Notes: generated by a model not told the origin, from the letters alone. A stretch of DNA of 64,000 nucleotides from Bispira polyomma (GCA_965649765.1 OZ287758.1:20894001-20958000); one strand, 5' to 3'. Counted from the stretch's first letter, positions 32,986 to 60,423 are shown. Translations and numbers: made by a program.

Positions 32986-33177
32986 ACAGCCGAATGAAAT
33001 GAGTTTGAGGTCAAGGTCATAAGATGGTAGTTTGACCTTGTGTGTGAGGTTTTGAAAGGTAAGAGGTCAGATGTGGTTTGGGATATTTATTTATAAATCT
33101 TTAGTTTATAAATGATTAGCTTCTATGTACAACTATACAGAAAATTTTAGATAAGAACTCAAATTTTAACACGCCAA
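32986..33177 (-). repeat. Terminal repeat B2
   Basis: acagccgaatgaaatgagtttgaggtcaaggtcataagatggtagtttgaccttgtgtgtga is identical to the sequence from 33903; ttttagataagaact.aaattttaaca.gccaa is also shared; B2 has about 95 extra internal nt. Confidence 0.9.
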
Positions 33178-33245
33178 TAAGCAAGTAAAGGGTTTAAAAA
33201 CCCAACACATAAGATAAAATATAAGAGTAAGGTAACTCATAAACA

Positions 33246-33535
33246 AAGCAACATGGTAAATATAACCAATGATGACTAAGAATAAAATGCTAGAAGCAAT
33301 ATGGTAAGTATAACCAATCATAGCTAAAAATAGGAAAATAAAGCAATATGGTAAATATAACCAATGATAACTACAAAATAAAATAACATGCTAGTACAGC
33401 AATATGGTAAATATAACCAGTGATAACTACAATTAAAATGCTACTGTAGCAATATGGTAAATATAACCAATCATAGCTAAACATAAAAGATAAAGCAATA
33501 TGGTAAAAAATAACCAATCATAGCTTAAACAATTT
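33246..33535. repeat. Minisatellite between A2 and B2, 6 units of 45-57 nt
   Basis: Conserved agcaatatggtaaatataaccaat core at about 33247, 33295, 33342, 33398, 33448 and 33494, with A-rich variable linkers. Confidence 0.9.
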
Positions 33536-33625: not shown

Positions 33626-33902
33626 AGATTTTTGATGTTGTTAGTTTGATTTCTGACTTAATAATGAGCTTATCATAGAAAGGGCGCAAAAGCGCTGGAG
33701 AGAGTAAGAAAGATTTGTCTTCTGACTTATCAGTGAGATTATAAGAAAGGCGGGAAACGCCGAGGAGAGTGGAGGTGTTATCTGAATGCAGCATTGGGGA
33801 GAGAAGTGATTGTGATAAGCAAGTAGTTTTGAAAATAGAAGTACAGTAAAGTATAGCATTTCCGTGGCTGACTAGCCATGCTACTTCGTGGCAGTGACGA
33901 AG
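33626..33902 (-). repeat. Internal repeat A2
   Basis: About 277-nt direct copy of 40316-40593 with about 9 substitutions. Confidence 0.95.
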
Positions 33903-34000
33903 ACAGCCGAATGAAATGAGTTTGAGGTCAAGGTCATAAGATGGTAGTTTGACCTTGTGTGTGAAAGTTTTAGATAAGAACTAAAATTTTAACATGCCAA
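33903..34000 (-). repeat. Internal repeat B1, directly fused to A2
   Basis: Copy of B2 that abuts A2 at gcagtgacgaag|acagccgaatg. Confidence 0.9.
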
Positions 34001-34007
34001 AGCCAAA

Positions 34008-34987
34008 CTAAAATTTGGAAGAGACAATAGAAGCAAAGGTGGTAGGGATGATAGAAGAAGCATGAGAAGTATTTTTTAAGTAAGTCCACACTGCATCTGA
34101 CTTCCAGCACCCATGTTTTTGTATGTGCTGGAGTTTTATGTTGGAATTAAAGGCTAAGGAGGCGCCAGAGCGCCTGAAACAATGAAAAGAATGACCTTCA
34201 GTGGGAATGTTTAGCTGATTAAGGATCAGTTTTAATATAGATCTTAACTTGTTGTCAGTTAAGCAAAGACCTGTGTTTGAAGGATTTGCTAAAAGAGGAT
34301 CCATGGGTCCAAGTGGATATTTTTGAAAAAGGGACTTTGCAGCCCTAACAGGACACAGCCAAGAATTGCTGATTGAAGGTAATTGTATGATATCAGGAGA
34401 AGTCCTAGCTTGATTTGTTTTGGACCATTTTAAAATTAAGTGAATACCAGGAGGAGCAAATAAGATATCTGGCCTTGTGAGATGTCTAGTGGGGTTAAAG
34501 GGGGTACCTGAAGAGGGGGTCAAATTTGATATTCGTAAGAAACCAAAAAAGACAAACAGAAAAGCTGTCCTAAATAACTCAGGATACTGAAGTTGCTCAC
34601 ATGCTTGAGAGATTTGTAGGAGCTGAGTTAAGTCAAAAACCCCTTTGACCTTGGATGTATACTTGGAAGTGATCTCTAAGGATCTGGTGTATAGAGGTAA
34701 TCTGGGATCATAAAGCCCAGTGTTCTGAATGTTCAGCACTTTGGTTTGGTGTCTTAATGCTGAGAGGTAATTTGTGACGACTTTGTGAGAAATTCCTGAT
34801 TGAGTCAAGAATTCAAAGAAAGCTATGATACTGTTGAAACTAAAAGTCTGTTTTAAGTCATAATAAACTGTGAAATTCAGAAACAATCGAAACTGGTTGT
34901 CATACTGTTTCTGTGTTCTTGGTCTGTGACTCTGTTCTAAACGTCTAAAGGCGTCTTGTACCAGTAAAGTGGCAGGTAAGGGAGTGT
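34008..34987 (-). CDS. Tyrosine recombinase of the Ngaro-like element (open frame, no own ATG)
   Basis: Catalytic motifs FFGFLRISNL (R), SKT (K), HCFRRSGAS (HxxR) and HGCWKSDAVWTY (W,Y); the frame stays open for 33 codons upstream of the TTG at 34886, back to an acceptor-like tttcag. Confidence 0.9.
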
Positions 34988-34993
34988 CTGAAA

Positions 34994-37584
34994 TTATATA
35001 TAACTGTCAAGGGTAAATAAGTCAATTGGGACGTCATACATGATGAAGTTGCCCGTAATAATATTTTTTACACAATCAGCATGATGCATTGATTCATACC
35101 ACCGAGATAACGCATCTGCGATTATATTGTCTTTACCTGGAATATAACTGATATTTAAGTCAATATTTTTGGTAGCACAGATTTGCCATATATTTCGGAG
35201 GCATAGCCCGAGATAATCATCTCTGGTTTTAGAAAACTGCACAACAGCCACCAGAGCCATGTTGTCAGATTGTATCTTAATTGTTTTGTTTTCCCAGTCA
35301 ACCTGTAATAAAATGCCATTATCTTGGTTTAAGTAGCTGTACTTGCAAGTACCATGGAACTGCTTTAGAAAAAGCAGGAACCACTGTAAGTCTTTATGAA
35401 ATTCACCGTTTAGAATGATAATTTTACGACTTGTAGACTGATGTAGTAAAGCAAGCATTCTGTTCATAAAAATCCGAGATGGTTTGATACAGCGATGTGT
35501 ATACAGTAGCTTGCCGAGTAATGACTGGTACTTCTGTTTCCGAACTTTCCCCAGGTATTTGAACTCCAGGCAAGTATTGTGAATTGAATTGAATTTTTCT
35601 TCATCTATACTGAGGGTTCCTTGTTGGATGTCTATAACAATGCCCATACATGTGACTCGCTTGCTGGGAGGTACTAACTTACTGGGGTTAATAGGAAGAC
35701 CTAAGTCTGTTAGTATTTGTTGTAAAGTTTCGTAGGCTAAGGTGGCCTTATCTTCGTGTTCTATGAGTAAAACATCGTCTATATAATTCATAACTGTGAA
35801 ACCTTTTTGTTTCATGATGTAAGTAGCACAATCTGAGGTCATCATAAAAGCAGCAGTACCATGAGTGAGACCAAAAGTCAAACTTAAGTCAATAAAACAC
35901 TGCTCTTTCCATATATAACCCAGCTTCAAACAGTCATAAAGATCTATTCTTAGGTTCCTAAATGCGTGCGCAACGTCCACCGTCCTATGTCCATAATTTT
36001 GTGAGTTATTTGGTCAATGGTGGGTAATTTCAAAGTGAAGTTGATTGTGTCGTACTTTGACTTAATGGTGCAGTCATTTACAGAGTAGCCTGCTGGGTGA
36101 GAAAGATTTAATATAAGACGGCACTTGTCAGTGTCTTTAGGTACAGTCAAAAGTGGAGAGCAGTGTATATCAGGGTGAAGGTCAGAAGTAGCTGAGCCCA
36201 CTAAGGTGCCTCGTTCGAGTTATGTGACAAAATATCTGTCCACAGCTTCTGGAAAAGTTCTTGCTGAGTAATGGTTCTTAACATTTTTGACTGTCAGTCT
36301 ATCTCTATCATACAATGAAATTGGAAAACCAAATTCAATATATTGTAATATGATGTTGTCAGGATATTCTGTCAGGTATTTCTTTCAATTTTCCACTTTG
36401 AGGTTACTCTTAAGTGGTATTCTGGCTTGTTTATAGTTGGGAAATCCAGAGTTCTTAACAATGTCTGCGATCTCAATGAGTTTTTCATAAGAATTTATAA
36501 GAACTTCTTGTCTGTCTGGGCCCACAAATTTAAAACTGTTCTGTCTGTGTGGTATGAAACCATAAGCTCTGTCCCTAGAAATAAGAAAGGATTCATGTTT
36601 GACATTGTCCACATTAGTGTCTGATGATTGAAGTGGTAAAATGTCATTAATCATGACGTCTTTATTATGCACAAATGTAGGTTTTTGAATAATAGAATCT
36701 TCATTGTGCACTAATATAGGTTTTTGTATCATAGAAGTTTCATTATGCACTAATGTAGGTTTTTGAATCATAGAAGTATCATTGTACACTAATATAGGTT
36801 TTTGAATCCTAGAAGTTTCATTATGCACTAATGTAAGTTTTTGAATCATAGAGGTTTCATTATGCACTAATATAGGTATTTGACTCATGACCTTGTCATT
36901 ATGCACTAGTGCATTACCTTGATTAATTTGATGCTCAAGGGGTAAGTGGGCTTGATGGTTACAATCTGAATTGCTCTGGTGTTGAAAATTTGATTTGCAA
37001 ATCTTGTCAATGATATCTGTATAATAGAAAGTTTGTCCAATTTTTGTGTGTGTATGTGCCACATTATGTTTTGCACGATTTTTTGACTGATTTAGTTGAG
37101 TGTGATGTAGTGTTGTGGCACAACTGGTGTTCACATAGGATAATGGCTATATGTGATCCAGTGTATAGGGGGTTTGTTGTAAGTACCACATATTTTGGCC
37201 ATAAGTCCATTTGTATACACCTGAAATACATGACTCATCATGACAAACGATATAGCAATGAGTTAGACAATCAGACCTAAAATTACTGGTGCTAATATAA
37301 ACATCTACTGTATGAAAGACAGCTGATGGTTTTTGACCATTATTATCACACTGAAAAGAGTTCATAACGTTCAATTTAACAGGCAATTCTTGCCTACATA
37401 AGTCATTAAGGGAAACACTGCCAGGTAATGCTTGAGATGTCTTACTGGCATCACTATAACTCAATTGAGTAATTGACTCGTTGAGTTGACAACTAAAATT
37501 ATTTATGAAATCATTCTTAAAACTGTTTTTCTTACAAATTTGCTTATTAGTACTACTGGTTAAATCACAACTTCCTGTCAGCAC
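34994..37584 (-). pseudogene. pol (RT + RNase H) of the Ngaro-like element, disrupted
   Basis: SPLLTVPK..RLILNLSHP.G.SVN, DVAHAFRNL, LTFGL, NYIDD, QSDN and PGKDNIIADALSR motifs are spread over four ORF pieces separated by stops, frameshifts and deletions. Confidence 0.9.
36650..36915 (-). repeat. In-frame 39-nt (13-aa) coding repeat x ~7 in the pol N-terminal region
   Basis: LVHNETSMIQKP(T/I) units in ORF 36385-37134. Confidence 0.9.
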
Positions 37585-37656
37585 ACAATGGTTAATAACG
37601 ACATCAGAAGTGGACTTAAGGTGAGTAGCTGTGGTGTCTGCTGGCAGTTTGCGTCC

Positions 37657-38264
37657 CTATTGAGGGGCGTTCGCGGGCGCATTTGGGCGTCCGTGTAACT
37701 TGAAACATTTTGACTCGGGGTGTGGGTTCATTCTCTTGTTGAGTCGGAAACAGTTGGCACAGATATGTCAGAATGTAATGTTATCGCCCTCATGATCTTT
37801 CTGGTGTTGGCAGTCAATTTTTGGTAACGCCTGCAATTCATTTCATTTTTGTTTGAAGATGAAGCAGAAAACGAACTGGTCGAAGGTGTGGTAGTACTGG
37901 ATATGAGGGCTTGAGAATAAGAAAGCTGATTCATATTCCATTTTGTGTCATTGATCCAACTCAAACAGCCCTCTTCAATACCATGCATATTACTGGCATA
38001 TGCTCCACGAGCGATCTCCCAAGAGATGTTGGAGGCATCTTTGAGGGTGTCTGCTAGTGAAATATCAGGATTCTTAACCTCAAGAGTATTTTGGATCTGG
38101 CCAGCAGCGAACTGTGAGACTGACAATTCATCAAAAGATACACACTTTTTGTTAACACCAGATAAGCAGGCCTCGTTCGGCCACCGCTTCATGGGGTCAG
38201 ATACACATAATTCAGAGGTATTATAGCGCCCAGATTTTCGCTTGGTAGTGAGCTTACCTTGAAT
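37657..38264 (-). pseudogene. gag C-terminal half of the Ngaro-like element
   Basis: IQGKLTTKRKSGRY..WPNE..FDELSVSQFAAG; after a frameshift near 37820 comes a Cys/His-rich tail (DCQHQKDH..HICANCF..HPESKC) with one in-frame stop. Confidence 0.75.
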
Positions 38265-39435
38265 GCTCTCATGCTCTCATGATATCAATCTTGCACTGGA
38301 CCGCAACGACACAGTGGCCCTCACCCTTCTGGATCTCTCAGCTGCATTCGACACTATTGATCATGTCCTGCTCTGCGACACTCTCAAGCAGTGGTTTGGT
38401 ATAAATGGCAGTGTCCTTAAATGGATCAGATCCTACCTTACTCTTAGGGCACAAAGAATTAAATTAGATGATCACCTATCATCTTCCATAAAACTTCCAT
38501 ATGGAGTACCCCAGGGATCCGTCCTTGGTCTACTTTTCACCCTTTATACACATCCTCTCAGCACTGTCATCAATAAACACAATATAAAACACCACATGTA
38601 TGCAGACGACATTCAAGTCTATTTCTCCCTCAATCCACAAAACGCAGATACTAACATAGACCTACTTGCAGACTGTCTGTCTGATGTCCAGGCGTGGATG
38701 AACTACTCCAAACTAAAGCTTAACCCTGACAAAACAGAATTCATCCTCATAGGAAACAAGAAAAACAGTGAACTCCTAAAATCTTTGTTTCCCATCTCCC
38801 TGCTGGGAAAAGACATACTACCTTCCGAAAATGCTAAAAACCTGGGTGTCACTTTTGATTCAGCTTTTTCGTTCGATACTTATGTTGCCAACATCTGTCA
38901 CTCCTGCTATTACCACATACGTGACATCAAAAGAATCAGAAACCACTTGTCGATGGACACAGCGATAACTGTGGCAAATGCCCTTGTAAGTAGCCGCCTC
39001 GACTACTGCAATTCTCTCTTGTACGAAGCAAATAAGTCAAACATTAAAAAGCTCCAGTCCATCCAAAACTACCTATGTAGGGTCATTTTTCGCCTGGGTT
39101 GTCGCACAGACGTCACTCCTTACCTCAAAAAATTACACTGGTTGCCCATTAAATCTCGAATTTTGTATAAAATTCACGTTACTACTTTTAAGGCTGTAAT
39201 CACTCAACAGCCACCCTACCTTGCCTCCCTTCTTTCCTTCAGTAACCGCAAGAGAGGCAACAGACTCTCTGTCACTTCGGTCAGACCAATCAGAAAGGTG
39301 GGTTTCAGAGCGTTCTCCACCGCAGCTCCACGGTTATGGAACAGTCTCCCAGTTGACCTCAGATCAGTTGACACACTTATCGGTTTTAGGAAAAAGCTTA
39401 AAACCTATCTTTTTAATCTTGCCTACCCACCTTAG
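38263..39435 (+). CDS. L2 reverse transcriptase, C-terminal 390 aa (truncated ORF2)
   Basis: LDLSAAFDTIDH, GVPQGSVLG, YADD, LKLNPDKTE, SRLDYCNSL, LHWLPI, WNSLP and FRKKLKTYLF; no stops; the P of GSVLGP is missing. Confidence 0.9.
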   Translation: MLSCSHDINLALDRNDTVALTLLDLSAAFDTIDHVLLCDTLKQWFGINGSVLKWIRSYLTLRAQRIKLDDHLSSSIKLPYGVPQGSVLGLLFTLYTHPLSTVINKHNIKHHMYADDIQVYFSLNPQNADTNIDLLADCLSDVQAWMNYSKLKLNPDKTEFILIGNKKNSELLKSLFPISLLGKDILPSENAKNLGVTFDSAFSFDTYVANICHSCYYHIRDIKRIRNHLSMDTAITVANALVSSRLDYCNSLLYEANKSNIKKLQSIQNYLCRVIFRLGCRTDVTPYLKKLHWLPIKSRILYKIHVTTFKAVITQQPPYLASLLSFSNRKRGNRLSVTSVRPIRKVGFRAFSTAAPRLWNSLPVDLRSVDTLIGFRKKLKTYLFNLAYPP

Positions 39436-39585
39436 CTTTCCTCGTGCACGCTCCCACTTCCTTCCTTACGACTCTGCAATTTCCATGGACTTAATGATTG
39501 GACTAATGATTCTGCTGTTGTGCTTTAGAAGATGCCTAGCATCAATAAAGCGCGTTAAAAATCTATAATCTAATCTAATCTAATC
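38265..39585 (+). mobile_element. 5'-truncated L2-clade LINE inserted into gag
   Basis: RT ORF followed by a ~130-nt 3' UTR and a (taatc)4 tail; removing 38265-39585 restores the gag frame (ACA|ATT CAA GGT AAG). Confidence 0.9.
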
Positions 39586-40158
39586 TGTGGCCCAGGCTTC
39601 ATATCTCGATAGTTGTTTGGAGACCTCGTTCTGTATGAGGGACGACTGCTTCAGCACTTCGGGAGTCGGGAGAATGGTATCTTTGAGAGCATGTTGAGTG
39701 GCTTCGTGATCATACCGGCTCTGTGAACTAGTGAGGTGACGTGAAGGAGAATCATGAGTCGCGAACGCGCTGGCAGTGTGATCTCTCTGACCGTCATGAA
39801 GTCCTAGTGAAGTGTGAGGATCTCGGGGTGCGTTATGAGGCGACACACGGTTGGTCTCTATCTTTCCAAATTTGAGATCTGAGACGTCTTCTTGTAGCTT
39901 GGAGACTGTAGATAACAGGGTTTCCATCATATTCTGCTGTGTGGAGTATGCCTCACGATAGAATTTTTCACTGCTAACTTGGCCACTTGCTTCAGAAACA
40001 CTGCTTTGATCATCACTATCAAAGCTAGGCTGGAGAAGATCATCATCTCTTGTGTCTGCGGTTCGTTTGCAGCGATTTCCTACTGGTCGTGTGTGGAAGA
40101 TTTCACATCTAGTACATGAGGCTGTTTCAATAGAGTTTTTCTTTTTTCCTCTACCCAT
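39586..40158 (-). CDS. gag N-terminal half (CCHC zinc-knuckle-like), interrupted by L2
   Basis: ATG at 40158 gives MGRGKKK..CTRCEIFHTRPVGNRC (Cx2Cx3Hx7C); 191 codons are open up to the LINE tail. Confidence 0.75.
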
Positions 40159-40315: not shown

Positions 40316-40593
40316 AGATTTTTGATGTTGTTAGTTTGATTTCTGACTTAATAATGAGCTTATCATAGAAAGGACGCAAAAGCGCTGGAGAGAGTAAGAG
40401 AGATTTGTCTTCTGACTTATCAGTGAGAATATAAGAAAGGCGGGAAACGCCGAGGAGAGTGGAGGTGTTATCTGAATGCAACATTGGGGTGAGAAGTGAC
40501 TGTGATAAGCAAGTAGTTTTGAAAATAGAAATACAGTAAAGTATAGCATTTCCATGGCTGACTAGCCATGCTACTTCGTGGCAGTGACAAAGA
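40316..40593 (-). repeat. Terminal repeat A1 (5' end of the element)
   Basis: Direct copy of 33626-33902. Confidence 0.95.
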
Positions 40594-43034: not shown

Positions 43035-44370
43035 AATAATAATAATAATAATAATAGAAGCATTTATAAAGCGCAAAATTGATTAAAATCCTCTAATGCG
43101 CTGAATTTTAAAAAGGGATTGTCCGTTATTGAGCGAAGATCGTTACCAAGTGAGCGCCAACAGAGGAAGTAACTAAGGTGGGGGATATGCCAGTCTGATC
43201 AGGTGGGTCTTAAGCTGGCTTTGAAAACCTGATAGTGTCTGCTGGGCTCTGACATTTTGTGGCAACCTGTTCCATTCTGCCTGTGCAGTGACAGCAAAGC
43301 TGCGCCTTCCAATTTTTCGTTCAGGGCAAAATGAAACAGATAGTCTATTTCCCCTTGTGAGGCTGCTGTACTTGATTCAGGAATATAGGTACGGAGGTTG
43401 CGAATAGTTAATAGCCTTGAAAACTAGCAGGTTGTACTTGAAAAGGATGCGATGTTCAATGGGAAGCCAGTGGAGTTTTGAATGTAAGGGGTGACATGGC
43501 TGAATCTGCCAAGCCTGTAAACAATGCGAGAACATTTTGGACTCTCTGGAGTTTGGCAATATTCGCCTTACTGACCCCATAGTAAAGAGTTGCAGTAGTC
43601 CAAGCGACTACTGACCATAGCATTTGCCACAAGAACTTGCCACATGTTTCCTCTTAAGATGTTTTGCAGCAAGAATGTTGCTGTTCATGAATCCAGTCTC
43701 AGGATGCTTAGGTACACTCTTCCTCTTCATTAGGGCATGCTTGTCAAGGCAGGGTAGTAAAATGTTGATGGCTGAGAAGACTAGAGGTTTTGTGGGGACA
43801 TCAAATTAGGCCAGAACGAAGGATGGCTGACCTAAAGTCTAAGATATTTATTTTATGAATTCTCCGAAAGTTGACCAACTTACCAACTCTTTAACTGGAA
43901 TAGCAACAGTAAAGGTGATTGCCATGCGATCTGATAGACCACCTACAACTTTTGAGCAAACGGCTGGCGAAAGGGATTCCTGACGCACAAAACATCCAGG
44001 GTGTGGCCGTGAATGTGTGTAGGGGAATTAATCAGTTGAACAAAATTGTATTGTTTGAGAGTATCATTAAATTTTAGTGACCAGGCATCCTGTTTGTCCG
44101 AATGAAAATTTAAATCGCCCAACAGAATATTTTCAGAGCTTGATAAAGCAGCACCCTCAAGGAACAAACCTAGGTCATTCAGGAACTTGGCCTTTGAGAC
44201 ATCAGGTGGCCTGTACAACACATGGAAGACAACCTCCTGAACACTGCCGGTTATTGTCCAAACGGATACGTTTTCAAAGGTTTCAGAGCAGGACGGTGAC
44301 AGCGACTTAAAGCACAAATCTTCACAAATAAAGAAACCAACCCCACCACCCTTCTTGATGACGTGGGGTA
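43035..44370 (-). mobile_element. Decayed L2-clade LINE with a large internal deletion
   Basis: APE endonuclease motifs (GGGVGF, LYRPP, LGDLNFH, PTHIHGHTLD) join near 43640 directly to the ORF2 C-terminus (SSRLDYCNS, LHWLPIEHRI, LKTHL); (tat)n tail at 43035-43057. Confidence 0.85.
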
Positions 44371-59794: not shown

Positions 59795-60423
59795 AATTGT
59801 ATTATATTGCATCTTGCATTTTTAACATGCTTTATTGATGTTAACTAATCGAGAAGTTAAAAAAAACCTAGCCTGGTCATAAGAATGGATGTGGGGTGTA
59901 CAGGGAGCATAAGCAAGTTTGCATAGATAAATTGAGGTTTCCTCATAGTGTTTCTGGTGATCTAAGCTCAACTGTGAGACAATTCGATAACATGGGAGTA
60001 AAAAGCTCTAGATCCAGTACTCTTGGTGGGTTTAACAGAGGAAACAGAGAGTAACTTTCTTATCTTTATGTTACTGAAGGAAAGACGAGCAGCAAGGTAG
60101 GAGGGTTTTGAATGTTGTGAAAAGGATTTTAAACATAATTCGATAATGCATGTAAAGTCAATGAAATTTAATGAGGTGTTGGGATACATCAGTTTGGATG
60201 ACCAGACAAAAAATGATGCTACATCGATAGTTTTGAATGCACTCTATATTATAAATGTAAAACTTTTTTAAAATTGCAGTTGTCAAGGTGTCTACTTGAA
60301 AGGGGATTGTCCACGGAAATAGCAATATCCAGTGACAAGTGATTTATGATAATTTAAGATAAATGTGATAGTAACTGGAGCAACATATGTTGTTGACGTA
60401 CCTGTCAAATGAGAAAACAGGGT
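59795..60423 (-). mobile_element. Old 5'-truncated L2 copy related to 38265-39585
   Basis: Degenerate FSFDRYVNNIC.SSYYHI..NHLSLDIAI, PSYLAARLSFSN..LSVSSVKP..GSRAF and the 3' end catcaataaagcatgttaaaaat. Confidence 0.75.

Follow-up and report, generated by a model that had tools for sequence, protein, structure and literature searches.

A Ngaro-like retrotransposon in Bispira polyomma and its relatives that may express a tyrosine recombinase by splicing from gag

The element at the locus

The minus strand of a 64,000-nucleotide stretch of the Bispira polyomma genome (GCA_965649765.1 OZ287758.1:20894001-20958000, hereafter the window) carries a retrotransposon of about 7.6 kb (40593 to 32986) with gag, pol and a tyrosine recombinase (YR) frame. 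We argue here that the family to which it belongs would make its YR from a spliced messenger RNA joining the first half of gag to the YR frame, a reading to which we give a probability of about 0.8.

The element starts with repeat A1 (40316..40593, 278 nt), which is 96.8% identical to its second copy, A2 (33626..33903). Repeat B1 (33903..34000) matches 33140-33177 (92%) and 32986-33047 (100%) within repeat B2 (32986..33177), which forms the element's 3' end and has a middle about 92 nt longer than B1. The resulting order, A1...B1-A2-B2, is that of split direct repeats; the spacer from A2 to B2 measures 450 nt and contains a tandem repeat of about 48 nt (33231..33529). Gag, reverse transcriptase (RT)/RNase H and YR all lie on the same strand, internal repeats follow the YR, and the element's ends lack the inverted repeat expected of a DIRS1-like element. 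A recombinase with an HxxR motif and a catalytic Tyr stands in place of a DDE integrase. Pol (34994..37656), encoding RT and RNase H, includes an in-frame 39-nt tandem repeat (13 codons; 36625..36936) in its variable 5' part, and no Dam methyltransferase match was found for it or for the intact pol of two relatives (L002 and L008). In the portions available of PMC4157794, PMC8547959 and PMC3783388, Ngaro elements (DIRS order) are defined by this repeat order, by gag-RT/RNase H-YR on one strand, by internal repeats after the YR and by the lack of a methyltransferase. By repeat layout and domain content the element is therefore a Ngaro-like retrotransposon, as an earlier note made from the sequence of this stretch had proposed. 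PAT-like elements (the echinoderm-form Pat1) share with it split direct repeats and have a zinc finger in Gag, to which the putative one described below may correspond, but according to the available part of PMC4157794 they carry a methyltransferase domain, whereas pol here stops about 40 codons after the RNase H motif.

The 5' part of gag runs open for 192 codons from an ATG at 40158 (39583..40158), forms the bulk of the predicted exon 1 and aligns with the Gag of four relatives (L002, L004, L008 and L009). Near its N-terminus the translation reads as a putative zinc finger (40069..40116), with the same spacing in all four. This motif is Cx2Cx3Hx7C and not the retroviral Cx2Cx4Hx4C, and the label of zinc knuckle given by the earlier note does not fit it. 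The YR frame spans 35006-34008; its predicted exon 2 part (34008..34987) is open to its stop, and the residues R158, H275, R278 and Y309 are present (numbering from 35006). The window's own YR protein matched no Pfam family, but its homologues match PF00589 and a YR profile weakly matches Cre (E 0.004). A search of the protein atlas gave nothing above 0.81.

Gag is interrupted on the plus strand by a 5'-truncated, putatively L2-like long interspersed nuclear element (LINE; 38271..39582; RVT_1, E 1e-21). This 1312-nt fragment lies antisense in gag, 13 nt upstream of the predicted donor. Contigs from all three public sequencing runs skip it and join 39583 to 38270, at depths of 70, 728 and 857, the position of the joint being uncertain by 2 nt. 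The contigs of these runs are DNA-like and dominated by the LINE, which is far deeper in them than the host element; among the 15 joints listed from them, none leads to 34987. The joint keeps gag in frame and leaves 20 residues, counted by eye, from a conserved IQ to a Gly, the same as in the Gag homologue P0288. The LINE fragment has an open frame of about 390 codons and a short tandem tail at its end, and short diverged matches to it lie elsewhere in the window (59947-60392, 43586-43631 and 22-81).

Splice signals in the window and in its relatives

The candidate 5' splice site (38251..38260, minus strand) has its GT at 38257-38256, in phase 1, in a linker that precedes a KSGR motif of Gag. 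It is the best-scoring of the 334 GT sites in the element; the donor matrix is generic, with values entered from general knowledge, and the acceptor matrix is likewise generic. The 13 nt that separate the LINE from this site (38258..38270) would end exon 1, and arithmetic places them in phase 1. The predicted 3' splice site (34988..35030) has its AG at 34989-34988, also in phase 1 and 6 nt past the pol stop, with branch-point-like YTRAY motifs 19 and 34 nt upstream. Donor and acceptor consensus thus occur in matching phase, as in a GT-AG spliceosomal intron, and the predicted intron measures 3270 nt. Upstream, a TGA lying six codons ahead of the acceptor codon closes the YR frame, whose sole Met is codon 234, at 34304. 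These observations bear out most of what the earlier note had read at the locus: a YR without an ATG before an internal Met and shut by a TGA just upstream of the acceptor, a strong phase-1 donor in gag, and an in-frame splice removing 34988-38257. The LINE-free product amounts to 522 codons and not to the roughly 519 residues given there, because the LINE boundary had been placed 9 nt off and three codons had been dropped.

Because the window's acceptor is unremarkable on its own, the case must rest on relatives. A profile of 60 YR proteins retrieved 25 loci from metagenome contigs, 21 of which cover the start of the YR (the other four lack it), representing 17 families at 80% identity and 11 at 60%; relatives were found neither in the viral nor in the prokaryote sequence collections. 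In each of the 21 loci a pyrimidine-rich run is followed by a YAG in phase 1, no more than 15 nt from where it is expected. Acceptors scoring at least 3 occur in phase 1 in 19 of the 21 loci and in neither of the other phases in any of them; under the same rule, 27 of 441 sliding windows inside the YR and 7 of 350 upstream reach that score. The nearest upstream AG is at least 15 nt away in every locus, compared with half of the control YAGs, a difference that the choice of the best AG favours. The earlier note had put forward the conservation of donor, acceptor and phase in other family copies as a check; in these relatives acceptor and phase are conserved.

One might suppose that such sites are mere by-products of protein conservation (Q-G-K at the donor, S-D at the acceptor) and of an A+T-rich spacer, with nothing being spliced. 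Codons for Gln-Gly-Lys can by themselves make a donor, the region before the YR is T-rich, and the scoring matrices are generic. Yet the YAG at the acceptor is constant across loci that encode different residues there (S, T, A, P, V, L or I in the first position and G, D or E in the next), so it is the nucleotides and not the residues that are held; the same T-rich stretch gives no good acceptor in the other two phases in any of the 21 loci, and the YR would be left without any way to start. We regard this explanation as the least probable of all those considered.

The start of the YR frame bears on a second alternative, in which the recombinase is translated from its own start, through an internal promoter or reinitiation, at a nearby ATG or a non-AUG codon. 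In six of the 21 loci a Met occurs in the interval that runs from the last stop to 15 codons beyond the acceptor, and the window has ATA and ATT codons immediately upstream of its acceptor. However, the other 15 loci have no Met in that interval and the six that do have it at unrelated places, so that no start codon is shared; the called N-termini of homologous YR proteins are scattered, and the window's only Met falls after R158 and K193. An own start would also leave a YAG in one single phase in 21 of 21 loci unexplained, and we consider it improbable.

Gag is included in six of the loci, of which four (L002, L004, L008 and L009) have a KSGR-type Gag like that of the window and two (L017 and L018) a different type. 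In all four KSGR-type relatives, the linker that connects a long helix to the KSGR motif holds a phase-1 donor with a score of 7.4 to 8.8; in one of them Arg replaces Gly and the GT is still kept. Donors of this kind number 12 in 6047 gag and pol codons, the four hits themselves included, or about 5 to 9% per linker by chance. By eye, and without a control, other Gag homologues have Q, K, P or A followed by G in the linker.

Annotated proteins offer a further line of evidence. Among the long YR homologues, a goldfish (Carassius) model, XP_026138202.1, consists of a proline-rich N-half joined to a YR. When it was used as a query, 17 of 151 proteins were found in which the start of the YR follows directly on a Gag with QIL[TASP] at its end, and in four of the 151 Gag runs on with a Gly at the same point, which is what a phase-1 splice predicts for unspliced Gag. 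Ten members were looked up, and nine are named RefSeq models (from Danio, Triplophysa, Chanodichthys, Alosa, Mytilus, Haliotis and Ylistrum); in the mollusc models the join follows a related RKQI-type motif. These 'uncharacterized' or 'proline-rich' models (such as XP_026138202.1, XP_073768545.1, XP_063404516.1) resemble the predicted product in having a Gag-like N-half and a YR joined at a constant point, but belong to a distant branch of YR elements, have another junction motif in Gag and are annotated as host genes. Matches to the HeH/LEM fold in the Gag N-half of the fish models are weak and below cut-off (E 0.002 and 0.1). Weak HeH/LEM or thymopoietin-like matches were noted in the same half of three fish and mussel fusion models (P0004, P0130 and P0210). 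A residue-pair count on YR homologues (28 of 35) was set aside, its window having been misplaced and a control lacking.

Points against the splice, and other routes to the recombinase and to Pol

Several points weigh against this interpretation. The splice itself is deduced from sequence signals. In the window the acceptor is modest (score 2.1, rank 31 of 423 AG sites), and an out-of-frame AG with a better pyrimidine run (35004-35005) lies 16 nt upstream of it; use of this AG would lead straight into a stop. Across the relatives, the enrichment of branch-point motifs is slight (9 of 21, against 24%). The donor rests on four relatives and the window copy, its 7.4 cut-off was set by the weakest relative after the data had been inspected, and the relatives' donors rank 1 to 3 among the GT sites of their own gag. 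In L017 and L018 the strongest phase-1 donor is situated some 30 codons downstream of this place, and these two loci neither confirm nor contradict the donor position. That position is less certain than the acceptor's. As for the RefSeq joins, they are predicted gene models of a more distant branch, their query was itself a fusion and so favours fusion hits, four models use a donor in pol, and seven run in from other sequence. In the window's own clade no annotated fusion was found in protein searches with the window YR and the Gag alignment, nearly all matches looking like intron-less calls.

Moreover, the window copy as it stands is unable to make the Gag(N)-YR fusion. It is dead: besides the LINE in gag, it has four stops (37770, 37149, 36387 and 36222) and two frameshifts. 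One frameshift, between 37902 and 37812, and the stop at 37770 fall in the 3' part of gag (37657..38257), which is 44% identical to the Gag homologue P0287; the three other stops and a frameshift near 35980 fall in pol. At or beside three of the stops nearly all contigs of the three public runs differ from the window, so these stops look private to this copy. The predicted exons are spared by all six breaks, which fall in the predicted intron; we did not count this as support, because the chance of such a placement, worked out by hand, is about 0.1 and it is exon 1 that the LINE interrupts.

The main open rival accepts the acceptor as real and pairs it with another donor, either one at 35136 in RNase H, which would give a 149-nt intron and a Pol-YR protein, or one ending a short leader exon with an ATG. 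At 35136 the window has a phase-1 donor with a score of 8.1, pol is joined to YR in four RefSeq-type models, and L017 and L018 have no strong donor in the linker. In contrast, no more than seven of 13 sequences use GGT for the Gly of this RNase H site, the six relatives with the GT score 2.4 to 5.7, and a splice at 35136 would delete the conserved AD.LS motif of RNase H. The 5' part of the window's gag has no phase-1 donor scoring above 4.6, and among the annotated proteins gag joins outnumber pol joins by 17 to 4, albeit with a biased query. A different donor is thus unlikely, if less so than any other alternative considered here.

Ribosomes might instead pass from pol into the YR by frameshifting or readthrough, yielding Gag-Pol-YR; frameshifting from the end of pol was the alternative that the earlier note itself had raised. 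The YR frame overlaps the end of pol in the window, L008, L017 and L018; it follows a single in-frame stop in L012, L014 and L016; and in three single-member proteins RT and YR share a continuous frame. The available part of PMC3783388 likewise has the fungal Ngaro YR either in frame with RT-RNase H or shifted. Nevertheless, this passage fails in six of the 12 relatives whose pol end can be located, where one to eight stops in the YR frame occupy the 75 to 312 nt from the pol stop to the acceptor. The offset between the pol and YR frames is 0 in five, 1 in four and 2 in three of these 12, and all of them keep a phase-1 acceptor. On these sequences the passage appears close to refuted as a general rule, and we rank it as even less probable than an own start of the YR.

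With these alternatives weighed, the reading of a spliced Gag(N)-YR product, first advanced in the earlier note, draws its strength from an acceptor conserved in 21 of 21 loci, a donor in four of four KSGR-type relatives, the lack of a shared start codon and the RefSeq joins in fish and molluscs.

In five of the six relatives a lone TGA separates gag from a pol that continues in the same frame (at 1122 in L002, 1562 in L004, 1317 in L008, 1194 in L017 and 1991 in L018), and the window has a TAG there (37659-37657). In L009, gag and pol overlap in the -1 frame (1040-1129), with a slippery A-rich heptamer followed by a hairpin (z -1.97), a candidate -1 frameshift signal. No shared structure was found after the gag stop (z +1.2 to -2.1), nor any shared acceptor before RT, the best phase-1 site scoring 1.4 to 3.7 in the six relatives. 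From this layout, pol is likely made by stop readthrough or frameshifting. Two phase-1 acceptor-like sites lie in the 5' part of the window's pol, at 37308 and 37017 (scores 5.5 and 6.6); they are unmatched in the six relatives and could give a Gag(N)-Pol from the same donor.

A proposed expression strategy and its consequences

We propose that one transcript, started from repeat A1, would have two fates. Unspliced RNA would serve as the genome and as the message for Gag and Gag-Pol. Splicing would take out 3270 nt here, with the whole of pol and the conserved C-terminal half of gag, and the product of 522 codons would consist of the zinc finger and the helical N-half of Gag followed by the whole YR. 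The Gag half may direct the YR to the Gag particle or to DNA, and the rate of splicing may set the amount of YR. Such elements lack a protease according to the available part of PMC3783388, so that a polyprotein could not be cut. Splicing would then provide a separate YR that still has a Gag handle.

Retroviral env and foamy virus pol are expressed by splicing the genomic RNA, of which the unspliced form remains the genome; there, as here, a 3' gene is cut off from the first start codon. The upstream exon of those messages is, however, non-coding or contributes few codons, whereas about 196 codons of Gag would be joined here to an integration enzyme. In the Ty1/copia group, a spliced gag mRNA sets the ratio of the proteins; splicing in copia yields Gag alone, and the integrase comes from the Gag-Pol polyprotein. 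In contrast, splicing here would yield the equivalent of the integrase, in an element with no protease to cut a polyprotein.

Accounts of Ngaro elements describe the YR as a separate, overlapping or frameshifted open reading frame and, in the portions available, are silent on its translation (PMC4157794, PMC8547959, PMC3783388); the element described here departs from them in its 450-nt spacer and in the prediction that its YR forms exon 2 of a fusion with Gag. More generally, the accessible text of the YR-retrotransposon literature searched leaves the translation of the third open reading frame unexplained. Neither a spliced gag-to-YR product nor splicing of an element's own gag to its YR is described in the available parts of PMC7192593, PMC9341512, PMC4157794, PMC6681497, PMC9210276, PMC3783388, PMC5633606, PMC8547959, PMC3950715, PMC3266345 and PMC9940879, a search outside which the founding papers lie. 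The locus represents a known kind of element, with a mode of YR expression that is probably undescribed and would be widely shared. This novelty could be lowered by Goodwin and Poulter, who in 2004 reportedly noted introns in some YR elements.

A broader proposal, towards which we lean only slightly, is that animal Ngaro-type elements, from marine invertebrates to fish, produce most of their YR in a chimeric form, spliced to the N-half of Gag. This half would act as a packaging or DNA-targeting module (a zinc finger here, a HeH/LEM-like fold in fish) and Pol would be made by readthrough or frameshifting, such that three proteins would arise from one RNA by two mechanisms, many of the products standing in RefSeq as uncharacterised host genes.

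If the spliced reading is correct, work on Ngaro recombinases should use the Gag-fused form and not the bare open reading frame, and the N-half of Gag would become a possible determinant of target choice and of how the enzyme gets into particles. An integration enzyme would join the list of retroelement proteins made by splicing, and these elements, like retroviruses, would have to export and copy an intron-containing RNA. A set of 'uncharacterised' fish and mollusc genes would, finally, be reclassified as products of such elements.

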